Shown here: positions 15,918 through 23,836 of the stretch, piece after piece
Numbering within the stretch: position 1 is the stretch's first letter
How the letters are laid out: each line of letters begins with the position of its first letter
Assembly: GCA_027262695.1 (NCBI GenBank)
Contig: GCA_027262695.1_4722.1
Strand: one strand, 5' to 3'
From: a phage
Length of the DNA: 64,000 nt
The notes under the pieces: model-generated
What the model saw: the letters and a program-made list of their open reading frames with translations, nothing else
Database searches by the model: none
What the model was told of the DNA's origin: nothing
Program-made: the position numbers and the translations under genes

Positions 15918-16532
15918 ATGAGCGAATACGGTGTTGTCCCCGTAGATGATGAACCGCAAGAGGCACCCGATAAATTCGAGGTCCGTCTCGATGAAACTCG
16001 TAACATCCGTCAACGATTTATTCAGCGTCTTGAAATGCTGTTAGATAGCGAATTCAAGGAATTTGAGCATAATCCCGGTGCGGATAATAAAGCCATCGTT
16101 GACGTAGAAAACGTCGACCGAATCGGGAAACTATTGCTGAAATCGTTGGGTGATAATGATAAAGTCGACTTAACGCTGAAACGTATTAGTGCTGACCAGG
16201 CCATGAACGACAGCGCATTGAAAACAGCGCAGGCCCTAACCGAAACCATGCTGCGCCGCTTAGGTCAGATGGATCAACATCCTCTCGCAGCAGGGGCTGT
16301 TTATGATGGCGAAGTCGTGCAACCGGTTACACCGGAAGAGCGCGATCGTCGACTTGGTTTTGCGTCGTTGGAAGAATTCGACAGCAAAGAGTTTTCACCG
16401 GGTATTCTCATCCAGGGACGTGTTGAAGAAACCAGCGATGCTTTTTACGCTAGAATGGCTCAACTGACGGCGTCGGTTCGTGAAGAGGTGTCTCAGCAGA
16501 TGACTGCTGAGGACGCACGCGAGGGGGAATAA
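15918..16532 (+). CDS. hypothetical acidic protein
   Basis: 204-aa ORF; AT-rich upstream region with GGAG. Confidence 0.55.
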   Translation: MSEYGVVPVDDEPQEAPDKFEVRLDETRNIRQRFIQRLEMLLDSEFKEFEHNPGADNKAIVDVENVDRIGKLLLKSLGDNDKVDLTLKRISADQAMNDSALKTAQALTETMLRRLGQMDQHPLAAGAVYDGEVVQPVTPEERDRRLGFASLEEFDSKEFSPGILIQGRVEETSDAFYARMAQLTASVREEVSQQMTAEDAREGE

Positions 16533-17229
16533 AATAACTGAACCATTTTATTCCAAAGAACCGCATGAACATCACGGGTGCGTTAGAAAGTTCAATCGCT
16601 TCGTAAAGTTGATCGTAAGCCAGATCGGAGTCAGGAATGGTTTCGCTGATCCGTCTGGCTACCACCAATACGTTACAAATCGGATTATCTTCCAACAGCA
16701 TTTGATTCGGGAGATGCCAACGTTTGAAATCGTAAAAGAACATCGCGTTATACGTTTTACGGATTTCTGCGGGATGCATCGTCGCCGGATGACGGTAGAT
16801 AATCTCGACGATATCTTGCGCACCGAGATACTGTTGAATACCCTCTTTTAACGCAACAGCTGCATCACCGACAAACTCAAACGGGTATGTGTTGACATGA
16901 ACCGAAAAATCCGGCGATGCGATACCGGTTAATCGATCCTTCATGTAATCCGCAACCACATAACACAACCGCCACATTAACTCCGTAGGAATGCATTTAT
17001 CGAGAATGGTTTCGTCAATATTTGCTAACGCGTTCTTAAACTCCTCGTAGGTGTAGTTTACTCCCGCCTGTTTCTCAGGTTCCAGGTTATAGGGCCTGTA
17101 ATGCCATTTCTTTCCCCACTTCCTGATCGCTTCTGGATCCAACGTTGTCGCTACTGCCATCTCAATGTCGAGCAGCGCTTCGAGTTCGACATAAACCGTA
17201 ACATACGCTGCGCTTTCAATCATCATCAC
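16450..17229 (-). CDS. hypothetical protein
   Basis: 259-aa ORF; 3' end overlaps convergent gene 15918..16532 by 83 nt; 5' end overlaps upstream gene by 4 nt. Confidence 0.5.
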   Translation of the reverse strand: MMMIESAAYVTVYVELEALLDIEMAVATTLDPEAIRKWGKKWHYRPYNLEPEKQAGVNYTYEEFKNALANIDETILDKCIPTELMWRLCYVVADYMKDRLTGIASPDFSVHVNTYPFEFVGDAAVALKEGIQQYLGAQDIVEIIYRHPATMHPAEIRKTYNAMFFYDFKRWHLPNQMLLEDNPICNVLVVARRISETIPDSDLAYDQLYEAIELSNAPVMFMRFFGIKWFSYFIPPRVRPQQSSAETPLHEPTPSVEPF

Positions 17230-17927
17230 TCTCCAGTATTACCCGTTAGCATCTGCGCGTCAGGCGACGTTGCCATTTTCTTCTCGTACTCTTTGGTTTG
17301 TTTGAAGACCAACTCACCGATTTCTTCCAGTTCTTCAACGGTGACGGTATGCAAATAGAGTAGCGGAATAATCCAGGTGTTCGCATTAAGCATGTCGCGG
17401 ATATCATCAACGGATGGGAGTTCGGTAAAGAACTGTTCATCAACTGCGAATAAATCCCGTGCGATGCCGTCAACGAGTTTGTGATTGCTTTCATGGATCC
17501 ATGCGAAACTTTCAGCAAGATGTTCCACGAGCATTTTAATATCATCGTCCGTTGAGAACACCGTACGACGAACATGCGTTGTAAGATCCATCGTGAATCC
17601 CATCAGCGAAGGGGTATCCTCAGAACGGAGTTCGCGCCACAAACGAAGCATGTTTTCAGGGATAAACAAATCATGGATAAAGGTGACACTGAACTTCGTC
17701 ACCCAATCTCGAATCGTCGCGCCTTTCGAATACTGTTGCGGCGGGGAATACAAATACACCCAGCGTTTTGTATACGCGATGACTTCCTTTCGCATCATCG
17801 CATCTAAAACAAGCACATAACGATCGGAAGCAAGTTCTTCCAATAAAAGCTCGAACGCCGTATCGCTTTCTGGAGAGAACGATCGTTTGATCTCTGCAAT
17901 ACGTCGTGATAACGAACTACGTAGCAT
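17226..17927 (-). CDS. hypothetical protein
   Basis: 233-aa ORF in operon. Confidence 0.55.
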   Translation of the reverse strand: MLRSSLSRRIAEIKRSFSPESDTAFELLLEELASDRYVLVLDAMMRKEVIAYTKRWVYLYSPPQQYSKGATIRDWVTKFSVTFIHDLFIPENMLRLWRELRSEDTPSLMGFTMDLTTHVRRTVFSTDDDIKMLVEHLAESFAWIHESNHKLVDGIARDLFAVDEQFFTELPSVDDIRDMLNANTWIIPLLYLHTVTVEELEEIGELVFKQTKEYEKKMATSPDAQMLTGNTGE

Positions 17928-17929
17928 GA

Positions 17930-18604
17930 TTAACCCTCGTCGAGATTATTCTGGAGATGCATTGCGGTGAGAATAACGCCAACTGCTGAAACCGATTTTG
18001 CTTTACTGTCTTCCGGAAGCTGTTCCAGACTTACCGTACCGGTTTCTAACAACATGCGGTTCATCGCGTTGAACTTCTTATCGTCACCACCACGCGCCTG
18101 CATCAACTCTCGGTTTACGTTCGGCATCGACCGTCCTAACGTCGCCTGCATTTCTGGCTGGCTCCACGTTGAGCCTTTACTGCCACCCGTCGGCTGGTTG
18201 GTCAACTGGTCTTTGGTGTTGTTGTTTTTCGGGATCGATATTTTAGCACTCAACGTTTCGGCTTGTCGGCGGTTTGGAATCAGGTACAATCTGGTTGGGC
18301 GGTCACGAAGCACCAATTGCCCTGTTTTCTGGTCGGTGAGATAAATGCGCTGGAAGAAGGGGAAACCGTATTTCTTACCAACTTCCAACGCACGTTTTAT
18401 CGTCACCTCGTTTTTGTTCATGTTGGGTACCCAGATGGGTAGAATCTCTTTCTTATCCCGACATAAACGCATATAGGCATCAAACGTCTCATCATCGATT
18501 TCAGCAAAACGTTTTTTGTAAATAGCGTAAGTCGGGCTAGATTCACCCACCAGGTCTTTGATATACCCAAGAATGAATTTTTCTGCTGCAGCGCGGTTGG
18601 ACAT
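17930..18604 (-). CDS. hypothetical protein
   Basis: 224-aa ORF in operon. Confidence 0.55.
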   Translation of the reverse strand: MSNRAAAEKFILGYIKDLVGESSPTYAIYKKRFAEIDDETFDAYMRLCRDKKEILPIWVPNMNKNEVTIKRALEVGKKYGFPFFQRIYLTDQKTGQLVLRDRPTRLYLIPNRRQAETLSAKISIPKNNNTKDQLTNQPTGGSKGSTWSQPEMQATLGRSMPNVNRELMQARGGDDKKFNAMNRMLLETGTVSLEQLPEDSKAKSVSAVGVILTAMHLQNNLDEG

Positions 18605-18613
18605 AAACGTCTC

Positions 18614-18955
18614 CTATTGTCGTGTCTGTTGCGGAAATACCCGAAACACCTGGACAATGATGTTCTTGTCCTCGCGGTTGGCGATGTCGATCATGTGTTT
18701 TGTTCCAGGACTTTTGAAATCCCAGAACGCAATTAGATGCGTAATGACATCACCCATCCACTCATTGCGTCTGAATCCAGCACCTTTACGATAAGGACCA
18801 TCCCAATCGGCAGGAAACGTGGTGTATTTAAACCCGTAATCCTTCGCGTAGCGGCGCACATGCAAATCAGCACCTGAATGCGCACCGCCAGCAATGAGAT
18901 GAACTTTGTCGTGAGGAAGGTTGTGTAACATCTGGTTCATACGCTTTTCGAACAA
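18614..18955 (-). CDS. DUF2493-like (SLOG/DprA-like Rossmann-fold) protein
   Basis: Motifs HLIAGGAHSGAD, FPADWD, KGAGFRRNEWM, AFWDFKSPGTKHMIDIA match the pattern I recall for DUF2493 proteins. Confidence 0.5.
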   Translation of the reverse strand: MFEKRMNQMLHNLPHDKVHLIAGGAHSGADLHVRRYAKDYGFKYTTFPADWDGPYRKGAGFRRNEWMGDVITHLIAFWDFKSPGTKHMIDIANREDKNIIVQVFRVFPQQTRQ

Positions 18956-19008
18956 GGGATAATCATCCCAGTAGCGTGATCCCGATACCCCTACACGATA
19001 GGGTTCGC

Positions 19009-19329
19009 TTATCTTCCACCGCGCAATGACTTTACGTTGCGTGCAATAAACGGTGCAACGTAGTCGCGGAAATTATGGATCCATCCTTTAATGGGTTGGT
19101 TGTCGAGCAAACATTCTCGTACTGAGAATGTGCTGACTTCTAATACGCCAAACTGCAATCGCCAATAACGGTTAATTTCAGCTTGGGTATGTTCTAATGT
19201 CATGTACTCAGGAACACGAGCCAGCAGGTCGTGTTTAAATTGCTCAGCAATCGCTGGTTGATGTGACGCAATTGTCTGCGTGATAACATCAATCAGTTCA
19301 TGCGCGTGCTTGATAGCAGGTGCTGTCAT
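19009..19329 (-). CDS. hypothetical protein
   Basis: 106-aa ORF in operon. Confidence 0.5.
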   Translation of the reverse strand: MTAPAIKHAHELIDVITQTIASHQPAIAEQFKHDLLARVPEYMTLEHTQAEINRYWRLQFGVLEVSTFSVRECLLDNQPIKGWIHNFRDYVAPFIARNVKSLRGGR

Positions 19330-19341
19330 TTATTTAGCCTT

Positions 19342-20832
19342 TTATTTTTTACTCGGACGATTCAGCGCAGGCACCGGATTTTTCGGTTGCTTTGTTTTTT
19401 CATCCATCCAGTACGGGAAGTATTCACCTGTACGCATGCGCAGTAAGTCCATGGTGGAAAGGAACGGAAGCGGATTTGGGTCGTCCAGATACGTCCAATA
19501 ACCACGTGTGTTTAACAGTACATCCCAGTCGAAACCTTTTGCTTTAAGATCGTCGTACAGTTCCTGTGGGGTGCAATAGAGCTGTGGGTTCTCGTAAACT
19601 TCTTGACGCCAGAGATTATGCATCTGGCACAACTCCGAGGTAATCTCCAGAGCGCGTTGCAGATACTCATCTTCTTCACAGAGAGAACGAATGGTTGTAC
19701 GCTGTAGTGCAACATCCGGATAAATATCCAAATACACCGTAGAAGCACCCTCAGCAGGTTTACCACCGGATGCATGCATACCCCAACCACGCATCCATTC
19801 TTTATCGCGTAGGTAATGGTATTCTGTTAACGACGGTTTAACGCCTTCGCTCTGACTGACGACAATCGGAAACGGTAAACCTGTCGGTCCGTTTTTAGCA
19901 CGCATGTTGAAAACCTGAATCAACTGCAGATCGGTATCACCAATAAGGTTATCACCAGGTCCACGAGGATACAACACACGTTTATCGGCGTTCTGAAGAA
20001 TCGTCAGTTTATCGATTTTCCAGAGGTTGTTAGTATAAAACGTAAAACGTTCAGGGACGTTCTTAAACTTCTCGTCACCTTTAAACCCTTTCAGTTTTCG
20101 TACCGGTTGCTGGCCTGGCATACCGCCAACGTTGACACCATCACCAAGGTGGGCCGTCATGGTGATATAAATGCCTGCTGACGCGGTGAGTACCGGCATC
20201 TGGGATAAAATCTGGCTTTTTGCTGCTGCTGAACGCATGGCTTCAGCATTTAGCTTTGCACCACCTGCGGTTTCTTTATCGAACAATGCATCAACAGCAT
20301 CGATTGGTAATCCAGAGAAACTGTCAATGAGGACAACGGTTGGTAACCACCAGGTGTAGTTCTCGCCGTGTTTGTTAATAAATGGAACGGCTTTGCGTTG
20401 TGACTTGTCTTTAACTTTGTCGTCACGGAATTTCTTGATTGCGTCGAACCAGATGTTACCACTCATCTGAACAGCGTCGGTGATAAACACACGTTCTTCT
20501 TCGAACAGGTCAACACCCGCGATATTAGACATGTTCATCGCAAGCGTTAAGATACGTGTTGTCGTTAACGACATTTCTGTGTCGTAAACGCTACTATTGC
20601 TGTTCGCGTAACGATCGATAACACGTAACAAGCGAAACATTATGAACGTGGTTTTGTTCATGTTGCCGCGAGCGCCTGCGCCCTCAACAAGCATCATACC
20701 GCCGTTACAAATGCTTTCACCGTGTTTACCGACGTAGTACCGACCACCAGATGTGGGAATATCCATTAAGCAACCAATGTTGAGATTAAAACGCATCTCT
20801 TCACCGGGAGAAAGGTACTTATTAAGATTCAT
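19342..20832 (-). CDS. RecA-superfamily ATPase (UvsX/RecA-like recombinase or DnaB-like helicase core)
   Basis: P-loop-like GAGARGNMNKTTF near N-terminus; TVVLIDSFSGL and AEAMRSAAAKSQILSQMPVLTASAG resemble RecA/UvsX Walker B and downstream region. Confidence 0.5.
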   Translation of the reverse strand: MNLNKYLSPGEEMRFNLNIGCLMDIPTSGGRYYVGKHGESICNGGMMLVEGAGARGNMNKTTFIMFRLLRVIDRYANSNSSVYDTEMSLTTTRILTLAMNMSNIAGVDLFEEERVFITDAVQMSGNIWFDAIKKFRDDKVKDKSQRKAVPFINKHGENYTWWLPTVVLIDSFSGLPIDAVDALFDKETAGGAKLNAEAMRSAAAKSQILSQMPVLTASAGIYITMTAHLGDGVNVGGMPGQQPVRKLKGFKGDEKFKNVPERFTFYTNNLWKIDKLTILQNADKRVLYPRGPGDNLIGDTDLQLIQVFNMRAKNGPTGLPFPIVVSQSEGVKPSLTEYHYLRDKEWMRGWGMHASGGKPAEGASTVYLDIYPDVALQRTTIRSLCEEDEYLQRALEITSELCQMHNLWRQEVYENPQLYCTPQELYDDLKAKGFDWDVLLNTRGYWTYLDDPNPLPFLSTMDLLRMRTGEYFPYWMDEKTKQPKNPVPALNRPSKK

Positions 20833-20930
20833 TGGGTAAAAACTCCTTCGATTCTTCGACTAATTCTTAGTGTTCAGAGAATAACTATTTTTAGTTAAGA
20901 CTGACAACCGCTATTTCCACGAGGACAATC

Positions 20931-21773
20931 ATGCATAAATTTACCATTCCTGAAGACCCGATTACACTGCAGACCCTTTGGGATTCACATCGTGCTCTAT
21001 CAATGGAAGGCTTTGCACAAGACTTCGCTTCACTTACTGCAGTAACGAATCTTCGTAGTATGTTTACTAACGGTAAGAAGTTCGTTACCGATTGGCTTAA
21101 AAAACGTGATGTGACGGTTTATCCTAAAGTCTCCGATGACCTCGATACCATCTTTAGCAACAACGCTTACAGCGATCTCATTGGGTATCGTGCTTTTATT
21201 CCGAATGGTTTAAATGCGCCGATGTCAGATTATGTTGTTGCTTTAACCCAGAGCCTGGATAGCGTAATTGGTACCATCTTGCCCGATTTGGATAAGTTGA
21301 CCGTAACGTGCGCTAAAGCCGTCAACGACGTTAACTTCCGTCGTAGTAGTGGTATGGCTCAAACACTACCTAAAAACGACCCAGAGAACGTTTTAGAGAC
21401 GTTACGTGCGATGTTCAAACGTGGGACGGTAACACAGACCACTGTAGGTCGTGCATATAAGAACGAAGACGATATCCGTCAGATCGGAAAAGATCTGGAT
21501 GTTTCCCGTACCCGTGCGCTCGACGTTAATCCTAAAGACGTGAAGAAAGCAATCGAACGTTTCATGGAGGTGGCTGACCGCTTAACCGAAATCCTGGTTC
21601 AAGATTACAATGAGGGTGCGGTGAGCAACGCAATGATTCGTGATATTAGCGACGCTATCTACCAAACAGCCAAGCAGGCTGAACTGTATGCGTTTCTCGT
21701 GAACGCTTTGGCTGAAGCGATCATCGCATATAACGACACATGGGACGCCGTTAAAAAGAACGCGAAAAAATAA
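20931..21773 (+). CDS. hypothetical protein
   Basis: 280-aa ORF bounded by divergent promoter region and terminator hairpin. Confidence 0.55.
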   Translation: MHKFTIPEDPITLQTLWDSHRALSMEGFAQDFASLTAVTNLRSMFTNGKKFVTDWLKKRDVTVYPKVSDDLDTIFSNNAYSDLIGYRAFIPNGLNAPMSDYVVALTQSLDSVIGTILPDLDKLTVTCAKAVNDVNFRRSSGMAQTLPKNDPENVLETLRAMFKRGTVTQTTVGRAYKNEDDIRQIGKDLDVSRTRALDVNPKDVKKAIERFMEVADRLTEILVQDYNEGAVSNAMIRDISDAIYQTAKQAELYAFLVNALAEAIIAYNDTWDAVKKNAKK

Positions 21774-21781
21774 CATAATAA

Positions 21782-21817
21782 CCCACCCTACTACCCCGTT
21801 AAGGGCGGTAGGGTGGG
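21782..21817. terminator. bidirectional hairpin CCCACCCTAC...GTAGGGTGGG
   Basis: 10-bp stem between convergent genes. Confidence 0.55.
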
Positions 21818-21824
21818 ATAAGGT

Positions 21825-22256
21825 TTATTTGCTGTATAGCTGTACCACTCGTTGTGTCGTAGGAACGCAGACTCTTACCAGAAGCTTTTTAATCTCCTGA
21901 CGAATCGTTGCTTTATCATCATAATAAAGCCATGGTGGAACGCGTTGCATTATGCGCTGCACGGCTTCATCGTAGTTCGTCGTCTCATTGAGTAACGTCT
22001 CACTATCCAGATCTTTCCATGCAGTAATACCAAGCCGCGCAGCAAACATCAGCGCTGAAACTGACTCCGCTATCTCCAGTCGCTCATTCATATCCGCAAG
22101 ACCTTTTAGCATGATGTAATTATCATCGTGCCGATGTAAGGTACCAAACAAACTTCCAAAGAGGAGGATGCGTTTGGCTTTTGCGGTTAAGAGGAACGAC
22201 AGGAGAGCGTGTTTCAACGGTTGTTTCTCACGTTCTACCTGTTCGACCATCTCCAT
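21825..22256 (-). CDS. hypothetical protein
   Basis: 143-aa ORF downstream of RNase H fusion gene. Confidence 0.5.
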   Translation of the reverse strand: MEMVEQVEREKQPLKHALLSFLLTAKAKRILLFGSLFGTLHRHDDNYIMLKGLADMNERLEIAESVSALMFAARLGITAWKDLDSETLLNETTNYDEAVQRIMQRVPPWLYYDDKATIRQEIKKLLVRVCVPTTQRVVQLYSK

Positions 22257-22259
22257 TGA

Positions 22260-23786
22260 TTACTCCAACACATAACGTGGGTTACTGTATATGTTAGCCC
22301 ATATCCCCACATCGTTACCTGATTCAATAATCACAGCAAAACGAAACGCAATATCAGACTCACGATAGGTTACTGCATACGCTTTCGTTTCGGGCGATGC
22401 TAAATAGCTCAAGTTCAGACGTTGAGGCAGGTCTAACCCCAAGGACATGGTACATGACGTAACACCTTGTTTATCAGGGTTCAGTCTGTAGTTCATGTCC
22501 ACTTTTAGGCTTTTCGTCACCTGCGTAATCGCACTATGCACTTTGGTAACCGTTTTGCCTTTCTTATCCTTTTCTGTTTCGAAAAGAACGTCGGTAATTT
22601 CGGTTACGACCAGACGCGGTGTGGATTCACGGTTATTGTCCAGCCATTCATCCAGTAACGTCTTCAAGAAGTTCAAGGAATCAATCGCACGCCAAGCAAG
22701 GTTCGGCGGATTACATGCTTCCATGAGAATCGCGGTGTTCGATCCACCCAACGGAAGATGCACGCTCTTACCGAGGCCCGTTGGACGCATGGTAAGATCG
22801 CACTCGCCCTCAAGAATATCGCGATGGTATTGACGATGATGAAGGTTATCGATGTATGCAATATACACTGATTCCGTTGTCCCATGCTCTAATACCCGAG
22901 ATGCATGCATACGCATAATCTCGACAGCATCATCTGGTTTGCTTAGATAGACAACGCTATACGCACTATCGCTGATTCTTTTCCCTAATTCAAGACGTCC
23001 TTTATTATCTTTATCGGTGTTACCACCGAAGTAGATATAGCGACCATCTTTCGCACGTTCTTGCTGCTGGTTGGTGGTGAAGTAACAGCGCGAGAACGTA
23101 AAGAACGGGCTTATTTCCGGCTCGGGGTTCCAATAACCTTTCGCTGGAAGCTCTCGGCGTATTTGGGTTCGTACAGCCCAGTCCTGGTTTTGTGACAGAT
23201 ACGTTCCACGCGTCGCCAGCATATCGGCACGCTCGTTACCGATATTGCCCTCGTGTCCAGGAACGTATCGCAGCGAAATATCGATAGCGTCGCGCTTTGC
23301 ATCCCTGATTGCACTATCGAGTTTTCGCCACCGTTCAGCATTCAACAACGGTTTATTATCGGATTTCACCCAGTTGTTTTCTCGCCAGTTAGCAAGATGG
23401 TTGGTGGTACCTACAACAACATATTGGCTATCCGACAATAGCTGAATCCGTTTTGCCCCCTTCGCTTTTCCAAGTTCAATCGCACGAATCGCTGCGTCCA
23501 ACTCCGCCTGATTGTTCGTCACGTTGAAACCTAACGCTTCTAACTCATCCACGTACTCTTTGGGTTCGACCAGCACAGCGTCTTTAGGAAAGTCGAGTTT
23601 AGGATCGACGTAACCGTATTGCGTCGGTTTGGGCTTTCCACTTTTTGAAGGTTCCAAGGTGCCTTTCACTTCTTTCATCAAATCGTAGGTGTAGCCATGT
23701 ACACCATAGCCACCGTACCCACTTGACGTTGGACGGGATCCCCCGTCACAATAGAAAACGGCACCAAGCTCGTTATTTCCTGCCAT
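22260..23786 (-). CDS. RNase H1-like domain fused to ~320-aa C-terminal domain of unknown function
   Basis: ORF track 22260..23798; start moved to ATG 23786 (MAGNNE, GAGG upstream). RNase H motifs: YCDGG, TNNQAELDAAIRA, SDSQYVV, GNERADMLA. Confidence 0.7.
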   Translation of the reverse strand: MAGNNELGAVFYCDGGSRPTSSGYGGYGVHGYTYDLMKEVKGTLEPSKSGKPKPTQYGYVDPKLDFPKDAVLVEPKEYVDELEALGFNVTNNQAELDAAIRAIELGKAKGAKRIQLLSDSQYVVVGTTNHLANWRENNWVKSDNKPLLNAERWRKLDSAIRDAKRDAIDISLRYVPGHEGNIGNERADMLATRGTYLSQNQDWAVRTQIRRELPAKGYWNPEPEISPFFTFSRCYFTTNQQQERAKDGRYIYFGGNTDKDNKGRLELGKRISDSAYSVVYLSKPDDAVEIMRMHASRVLEHGTTESVYIAYIDNLHHRQYHRDILEGECDLTMRPTGLGKSVHLPLGGSNTAILMEACNPPNLAWRAIDSLNFLKTLLDEWLDNNRESTPRLVVTEITDVLFETEKDKKGKTVTKVHSAITQVTKSLKVDMNYRLNPDKQGVTSCTMSLGLDLPQRLNLSYLASPETKAYAVTYRESDIAFRFAVIIESGNDVGIWANIYSNPRYVLE

Positions 23787-23836
23787 TGTAAACCTCATTA
23801 ATCATTGTCCGTATGATAGCCCAAAGTTGTACGGTA

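Follow-up and report, generated by a model that had tools for sequence, protein, structure and literature searches.

In a 64,000-nucleotide (nt) stretch of phage DNA (assembly GCA_027262695.1, contig GCA_027262695.1_4722.1; hereafter the window), the gene for a recombinase of the UvsX/RecA family is followed by two small genes, the second of which encodes a protein of the SLOG superfamily. We found that the conserved N-terminus of this SLOG protein is encoded by a stretch without a start codon of its own, and that it is probably reached by a -1 ribosomal frameshift within the preceding gene, designated here MID ("middle gene"). The open reading frames (ORFs), all on the minus strand like every other feature described below unless stated otherwise, are placed as an earlier, sequence-only reading of the DNA had given them: 19342..20832 (496 amino acids, aa, from an ATG) for the recombinase and 18614..18955 (113 aa from a TTG) for the SLOG protein, with one gene (19009..19329, MID) between them. 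All of the peptide motifs quoted in that reading are present in the translations. The region 17000-23000 is 92.2% identical over its full length to Escherichia phage vB_EcoM_Goslar, a nucleus-forming jumbo phage of 237 kb infecting E. coli. The source of the window is thus a close relative of Goslar, i.e. another isolate within the same phage group. In the Goslar records all of the genes in question are labelled "hypothetical protein".

The body of the SLOG gene (18614..18940) matches the Pfam family PF10686 and corresponds to Goslar gp195 (Goslar_00241), which is annotated as a protein of 108 aa starting from ATG 18940. In the window, the SLOG frame remains open up to position 19072, and it contains no ATG, GTG or TTG upstream of TTG 18955. 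This start-less extension (18941..19030; VIARWKISEPYRVGVSGSRYWDDYPLFEKR) encodes strand beta1 of the domain and an S-G-x-R motif. The motif is invariant in comparison with the orthologs of phages Moabite and PhiEaH1, in which these residues come after a regular start codon. Without the extension, the listed ORF matched PF10686 with 34.3 bits over profile positions 18-64 of 66; with it, the score rose to 52.3 bits and the coverage to positions 2-64, the gathering cut-off being 28.2 bits. Furthermore, a database fragment identical to the SLOG protein of the window runs on upstream as ...EPYRVGVSGSRYWDDYPLFEKRMNQ...

The same arrangement is common to five lineages of the Goslar group: (i) the window, Goslar, L011 and L012, (ii) L003, L005, L095 and L096, (iii) L004, (iv) L093 and (v) L094. 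Since these lineages were assembled independently, the start-less arrangement is not a sequencing error. Four of the five lack any ATG, GTG or TTG before strand 1 (a TTG is present in L004), and in L005-type genomes the open stretch is devoid even of near-cognate codons (ATG, GTG, TTG, CTG, ATT, ATC and ATA were considered). In most of the other lineages examined a canonical start is located 0-21 codons before strand 1, with a few loci falling outside the motif pattern.

The nucleotide changes within the extension follow the SLOG frame. The ratio of nonsynonymous to synonymous polymorphism (pN/pS) is 0.19-0.38 in this frame, compared with 0.30-0.35 for the gene body and 0.87-3.1 for the other two frames. 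L003 and L005 are separated by 25 synonymous changes against 17 nonsynonymous ones (ratio 0.19), the window and Goslar by 8 against 1. Because pN/pS in the SLOG frame matches that of the gene body, we read the start-less extension as translated, and the pattern of substitutions indicates that purifying selection persisted after the canonical start had been lost. A truncated or decaying gene, expressed solely as the 108-aa ORF from ATG 18940 without the first strand, or not giving any functional product, would match the Goslar annotation and the treatment of all the relatives by gene callers. Nevertheless, we consider this very improbable: the 30 upstream codons are under the same selection as the body, also in the start-less lineages, and they carry a motif that is invariant across the family. 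In addition, ATG 18940 is not conserved as a start, being replaced by ATA in L093, and unlike the neighbouring genes it is not preceded by a Shine-Dalgarno sequence.

How ribosomes might enter this frame is suggested by its position relative to MID. The SLOG frame overlaps the MID ORF and is -1 relative to it, and the overlap contains a candidate -1 slip site, GUA_AAG, at MID Val99-Lys100 (19030..19035, with A_AAG at 19033..19030), which is invariant in the five lineages. The MID homologs of other lineages (Moabite, PhiEaH1) end exactly at the residues corresponding to ...N-V-K100 of the window. In L094 a stop codon in the SLOG frame is located three codons upstream of the slip site and the MID stop two codons downstream of it, therefore any change of frame is confined to approximately 15 nt, which include A_AAG. 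For E. coli, a host with only one tRNA-Lys, this tetranucleotide is the classic minimal site of -1 shifting (Atkins et al. 2016, PMC5009743). IS1222 makes use of it (G_CGA_AAG), and it is also present in Bacillus subtilis cdd (A_CGA_AAG) (PMC5009743). Five nucleotides after the site, RNAalifold predicted a hairpin (18993..19024) with a stem of 9-11 bp, composed of the 5' arm GCGCGGUGG (19024..19016) and the 3' arm CUAUCGUGU (19001..18993), whose variable loop holds the MID stop codon TAA (19011..19009). Further occurrences of either arm in the window are no more frequent than chance predicts.

In our reading of the sequences, the strongest evidence for the frameshift is the freezing of synonymous sites. 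Within SLOG-frame codons 15-74, 25 of the 26 degenerate columns with an invariant residue use at least two codons in the five lineages. The slip codon and both stem arms together hold five such columns, each of them restricted to one codon (hypergeometric p=3.5e-5), whereas the spacer and the hairpin loop vary freely. The MID frame gives a similar picture, since GTA (one of four possible codons) and AAG (one of two) are frozen, while 17 of 20 other comparable columns vary. Moreover, in the six codons directly after the slip site, constraint appears stronger in the -1 frame (pN/pS 0.52) than in the 0 frame (1.03), although this is a small sample.

Several observations weigh against a frameshift. 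The stability of the hairpin does not exceed that of shuffled sequences (z from 0 to -0.9), and as all of its pairs are invariant, no covariation is possible. The slip site is a tetranucleotide of the minimal Z_ZZN type and not an X_XXY_YYZ heptamer, and it lacks an upstream stimulator. An in-frame natural fusion of MID and SLOG (a "Rosetta stone") was absent among the 150 best of 319 MID-family representatives. Finally, the invariant GGUGG could serve as a Shine-Dalgarno sequence for a codon in the hairpin loop, which is ATA in the window, L093 and L094, GTA in the L003 group and TTG in L004. According to this last explanation, which we regard as unlikely, SLOG would be made alone (approximately 132 aa, 15.5 kDa) from the codon four positions before a conserved Tyr, with GGUGG sequestered by the hairpin until ribosomes finishing MID open it (translational coupling). 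The codon column never departs by more than one base from a start codon, is a true TTG in L004, and lies near the start codon of Moabite (shifted by one residue in the alignment). GCGCGGTGG shows no variation, not even in L004 and L094, in which it falls between genes, and three lineages have a MID stop that shares bases with the ATA or GTA codon (ATAA, GTAA); the lack of natural fusions is also compatible with separate synthesis. On the other hand, initiation in E. coli is very inefficient at AUA and above all at GUA, and the column reads Ile/Val/Leu, which fits a conserved aliphatic position of a translated linker better than a selected initiator. There is no overlap of stop and start in L094 and L004, where the MID stop is located 14 nt upstream of the loop codon. 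Initiation in the loop also leaves unexplained both the synonymous freezing of GTA-AAG and the constraint on the -1 frame after the site.

Taken as the decoding route of SLOG, the frameshift is therefore what we consider probable from these patterns of constraint. Some of the ribosomes finishing MID would slip back by one base on GUA_AAG (19035..19030), 5 nt before the conserved hairpin, and continue in the SLOG frame. The predicted outcome is a MID-SLOG fusion of 238 aa (27.9 kDa), composed of MID residues 1-100, the linker VIARWKISEP and the complete SLOG domain, produced beside free MID. Such a fusion would tether the SLOG domain, a module related to DprA that may bind single-stranded DNA or a nucleotide ligand, to the UvsX-associated MID. 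We lean towards the view that Goslar-group phages express SLOG solely in this trans-frame form, at a fixed low ratio to free MID, which would couple it to the partner of the recombinase. The complete account, i.e. a nuclear UvsX, MID as its partner and a MID-SLOG fusion made by frameshifting, is favoured with modest confidence.

The predicted arrangement resembles known A_AAG frameshift systems (IS1222, B. subtilis cdd and E. coli dnaX, A_AAA_AAG) in the start-less downstream -1 ORF, the A preceding the Lys codon AAG, the predicted stem-loop (here 5 nt downstream of the site) and a host with a single tRNA-Lys. A short product accompanied by a C-terminally extended fusion would also be the outcome known from lambda G/GT and dnaX. 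It differs from the known A_AAG cassettes in the absence of a Shine-Dalgarno-like stimulator upstream of the site and in its weak hairpin, which contains four G-U pairs and is not statistically stable. A literature search on Goslar and frameshifting yielded no report. If correct, the frameshift is a simple case of recoding in a jumbo phage and, as far as literature searches show, the first recoding event described in the DNA-metabolism module of Chimalliviridae; it would also point to a physical link of the SLOG domain with a helical protein, MID. The published Goslar "DprA" ORF would then be mis-annotated (truncated). As annotated, it lacks the first strand and the invariant Gly-x-Arg, and constructs designed from the annotation are probably non-functional.

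The affiliation of the SLOG protein was established by profile searches. The DUF2493 pattern noticed in the sequence-only reading is indeed present, as the protein matches PF10686 (YAcAr, formerly DUF2493, "YspA, cpYpsA-related SLOG family"; E=2.1e-8). Alignment of 17 diverse jumbo-phage homologs revealed the invariant motifs G-x-R (after strand 1), G-x-x-G-x-D, A-G-x-x-R-N and S-x-G-T. The link to DprA/Smf drawn in the same reading holds at the level of the superfamily, but does not extend to the DprA family itself. No match of the window protein to PF02481 (DNA_processg_A) was obtained at E values up to 0.1; its Moabite and PhiEaH1 orthologs gave sub-threshold scores of 16.6 and 12.6 bits (cut-off 29.6). 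A profile built from the 17 homologs retrieved no DprA chain, and nothing significant, from the PDB sequences. Because PF10686 is matched, and PF02481 and the DprA chains of the PDB are not, the small protein is a member of the SLOG superfamily and of its YAcAr family, not of the DprA family. DprA is a multi-domain protein, with flanking domains around a Rossmann-like core. In contrast, the SLOG protein is a single domain of approximately 130 aa, and its alignment includes no flanking domains. Features shared with DprA/Smf are the SLOG superfamily and the location of the gene near that of a RecA homolog. The arginine of the invariant Gly-x-Arg may be a counterpart of an arginine that contacts single-stranded DNA in DprA.

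The window protein is 98% identical to its Goslar ortholog. YAcAr relatives occur in 455 phage records, where they are inconsistently named ("GTP-binding domain", "DprA-like", "ssDNA-binding"). By its score above the curated Pfam threshold, the window protein is a member of this family, which includes the "DprA" gp153 of phage RAY and the C-terminal domain of the DNA helicase HelB of phage ICP1 (a DUF2493/YAcAr relative joined to an SF1B helicase), and it has the invariant motifs in common with the other members. The RAY-type proteins carry an extra N-terminal domain and have a Macro neighbour, whereas the SLOG domain of the window is a minimal stand-alone one without its own start codon.

The surroundings of UvsX were compared in 80 loci encoding UvsX homologs, scanned with hidden Markov models of MID and SLOG and collapsed into 31 lineages (UvsX identity of 80% or more; downstream sequence of 2.5 kb or longer). 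MID follows UvsX directly in 22 of the 31 lineages and is found within 4 kb of it in 25. SLOG is located downstream of UvsX in 12 lineages, and both MID and SLOG in nine. On the basis of these counts, the tight, near-constant partner of UvsX in Chimalliviridae is MID, and SLOG is an accessory, lineage-restricted third gene (approximately 40% of lineages). As MID accompanies UvsX in most of the lineages sampled, it is a stronger candidate than SLOG for the role of UvsX cofactor where UvsY is lacking. The MID protein of the window (19009..19329, 106 aa; phrog_6181) is predicted to be a five-helix bundle (predicted local distance difference test, pLDDT, 90.7). Its family comprises 319 cluster representatives, nearly all of 83-135 aa, and is missing from the published core-gene list; structural comparison of MID gave no informative fold match and no UvsY-like fold. 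A protein 98% identical to the MID of the window has been deposited as "hypothetical protein ACMG5L_21910 [Escherichia coli]", which suggests that a Goslar-like phage contig is included in an E. coli assembly.

Whether the SLOG protein acts together with the recombinase is less certain. Its function could be directed at DNA or at nucleotide/ADP-ribose ligands. Iyer et al. (2021; PMC7824862) proposed that a DprA/Smf-type SLOG protein could replace UvsY beside the RecA homolog of jumbo phages. Thus, the recombination-mediator pairing put forward in the sequence-only reading is already in print, as an unproven hypothesis. The same authors predicted that YAcAr proteins have NAD+-linked roles and act on NAD+ or ADP-ribose derivatives, and they noted fusions to Macro, NADAR and Nudix domains (PMC7824862). 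A role other than recombinase loading, in which the YAcAr SLOG domain binds or processes NAD+ or ADP-ribose derivatives or ADP-ribosylated DNA (e.g. in counter-defence), is a serious alternative, although we judge it the less probable one. The place beside UvsX would then reflect a shared block of DNA-maintenance or nuclear genes and not a direct partnership; the frameshift is compatible with this possibility.

Part of the comparative evidence points in that direction and weighs against a role tied to UvsX. PhiKZ-like lineages retain UvsX and MID but lack SLOG, which is absent from many UvsX-bearing lineages, and most of the 455 YAcAr phage records lack this UvsX family. The YAcAr gene is often found among small early genes, as in an N4-like coliphage, Bacillus phage Kirov and an Acinetobacter phage, with no recombinase nearby. 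In RAY/Ea35-70-like loci (L085 5464-7255, L066 5403-7184, and L084) the place of MID is taken by a divergent SLOG-like paralog (139-160 aa, without a Pfam match), followed by a Macro domain (PF01661, E=1e-9) and then by a 293-aa protein with a C-terminal YAcAr domain, which matches the sequence published for RAY gp153. The N-terminal domain of the gp153-type proteins (approximately 150 aa) matched no Pfam or NCBIfam family. The Macro and YAcAr domains are encoded by adjacent genes in L085; in L066 they are joined, together with an unassigned domain, in one fused protein of 429 aa. These Macro-SLOG associations in RAY-like phages raise the possibility that "DprA-like" proteins are concerned with ADP-ribose-type ligands rather than with recombinase loading, and the lack of a DprA-family match for the window protein fits such a role.

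Other observations favour a DNA-directed function. The order UvsX-MID-SLOG is kept across lineages whose UvsX proteins are only about 33% identical, the DUF2493 domain of ICP1 HelB provides a DNA context, and the annotation of Moabite records an HHpred match of the SLOG ortholog to DprA of Helicobacter pylori. Furthermore, Prichard et al. (2023) aligned "Goslar_gp241" (the ortholog of the SLOG ORF of the window) with RAY gp153, calling both DprA, and showed that RAY gp153 co-localises with phage DNA. Any physical contact between UvsX, MID and SLOG is inferred, as are the biochemical roles of MID and SLOG.

The protein encoded by 19342..20832 is the phage's own recombinase of the RecA/UvsX family, orthologous to Goslar gp193 (GenBank Goslar_00243), PhiKZ Nlp1/gp152 and RAY gp150. 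It has a RecA-fold ATPase domain, as had been proposed from its motifs, and its closest structural relatives are recombinases (scores of about 19 for RAD51 paralogs and 18.5 for T4 UvsX). The DnaB-like helicase core offered as an alternative in the sequence-only reading is practically negligible: DnaB, T7 gp4, Twinkle and KaiC (at most 16.6) rank below the recombinases, and the helicase alternative is therefore rejected, while both family assignments of that reading, recombinase and SLOG, stand. The single strong profile match of the ATPase is to PHROG 97, "UvsX-like recombinase" (E=1.8e-32), a group which contains such jumbo-phage proteins. It has to be set against this that no match was found in Pfam (RecA/Rad51) or NCBIfam, and that a profile of 31 ATPase homologs detected T4 UvsX (3io5) only at E=0.63; searches of PDB sequences, with the single sequence and with the profile, gave nothing significant. 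As the curated sequence models are not matched, membership of the recombinase family rests on fold and motifs.

The motifs are well preserved in the 31 homologs. The Walker A motif/P-loop, A54-RGNMN-K60-T61 (20650..20673), in which G51, N57 and K60 are invariant, aligns with GPSKSFKS of T4 UvsX. It deviates from the consensus GxxxxGK[ST] by an Asn in place of the consensus Gly, and a non-Gly residue, Phe, also precedes the P-loop Lys in T4 UvsX. The motif of the presumed catalytic Glu, Y-D84-T-E86 (20575..20586; D84 and E86 invariant), was aligned by hhalign with YDSE in a fragment of T4 UvsX, and Walker B is represented by VVLID170S (20320..20337; D170 and S171 invariant). The predicted structure has two low-confidence loops, 181-191 and 234-239, that border the expected strands, and these loops may correspond in position to L1 and L2 of RecA. 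Thus, the protein shares with T4 UvsX and bacterial RecA the RecA-fold core, the P-loop Lys, the catalytic Glu, the Walker B Asp and possibly, as modelled, flexible loops at the L1/L2 positions, while being only 11-15% identical to them. A C-terminal extension of approximately 250 aa had been noted previously; a conserved, mostly helical tail does exist, but its length was overstated, since about 300 residues align with RecA and the tail spans residues 333-496 (approximately). It is conserved over its full length in all members of the family (288 phage records, all from jumbo phages). The most conserved peptides of the protein, FLSTMDLL and MRxGxYxPYW (19408..19464; invariant columns, high pLDDT), are located in this helical region and are absent from RecA and UvsX.

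One Goslar-group relative (L005, 1029-3617) contains an 862-aa ORF in which a LAGLIDADG/Hom_end module of approximately 358 aa is fused in frame to the N-terminus of UvsX. An intein was considered and rejected, because BLAST shows an uninterrupted UvsX (residues 359-852) with the LAGLIDADG module as an N-terminal addition, which probably reflects the insertion of a homing endonuclease just upstream of UvsX.

Much is already known of this recombinase. Birkholz et al. named Goslar gp193 "UvsX" and observed in all infected cells (100%) that its fluorescent fusions co-localise with the phage nucleus (bioRxiv 10.1101/2021.10.25.465362), while Prichard et al. (2023) listed it as Chimalliviridae core gene cg49 (gp243 in the GenBank numbering of Goslar, PhiKZ gp152, RAY gp150). 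PhiPA3 gp175 has been employed as a RecA marker for the nucleus, and studies of nuclear import use PhiKZ Nlp1, a recombinase that confers fitness, as a model cargo. Phages deleted for nlp1 formed small plaques, had a competitive index of 0.05 and were sensitive to NucC, a nuclease of the cyclic-oligonucleotide-based antiphage signalling system (CBASS), a phenotype interpreted by the authors of that work as lost recombinational repair. The UvsX of the window (99% identity to Goslar; approximately 37% to PhiKZ-like phages over 95% of its length) is a direct ortholog of these nucleus-localised proteins, with the same gene neighbourhood and no substantive difference from Goslar gp193 and the other cg49 orthologs. 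By orthology, it would be imported into the phage nucleus and form ATP-dependent filaments on single-stranded DNA, which may serve recombination-dependent replication and repair of the phage genome. A recombinase with a small SLOG neighbour is thus already known: the former has been published as a marker for the phage nucleus and a model import cargo, and the latter has been called DprA, so the finding as first stated adds little. What is new is the probable recoding with the mis-annotated N-terminus, MID as the constant neighbour of UvsX, and the association of Macro and SLOG domains in RAY-like phages.

The genes described above form part of a tightly packed minus-strand run headed by UvsX. 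UvsX, MID, SLOG, a gene for a fragment of the RNA polymerase beta subunit and two more genes are separated by gaps of at most 12 nt or overlap, and no convincing terminator was found among these packed genes in the window. Co-transcription of the UvsX-MID-SLOG run, assumed in the sequence-only reading, is therefore plausible. A scan for sigma-70 promoters was uninformative, as the phage uses its own RNA polymerases, and PADLOC and NCBIfam scans gave nothing useful. The polymerase gene (17930..18604; phrog_3233, E=9.9e-65; core gene cg50; ortholog of PhiKZ gp149) starts 9 nt past the SLOG stop and is preceded by a strong AGGAG sequence. As it adjoins SLOG, a virion RNA polymerase subunit is encoded in the same run as the recombination genes. 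It is worth mentioning that the RefSeq record of Goslar labels its product "RNA polymerase beta subunit", and that the core-gene table (cg50) gives "virion structural protein".

Further upstream, 22260..23798 encodes a 512-aa protein with an RNase H domain restricted to residues 91-198 and a large conserved extension (phrog_3265). According to the core-gene table this is the ortholog of PhiKZ gp155 (Nlp2), also a model nuclear-import cargo, and two of the four model cargos (the Nlp1 and Nlp2 orthologs) are therefore encoded within 4.5 kb. At the other side of the locus, the convergent ORFs 15918..16532 (plus strand) and 16450..17229 (minus strand) overlap by approximately 83 nt at their 3' ends, and the same annotation is present in Goslar (gp199 and gp198).

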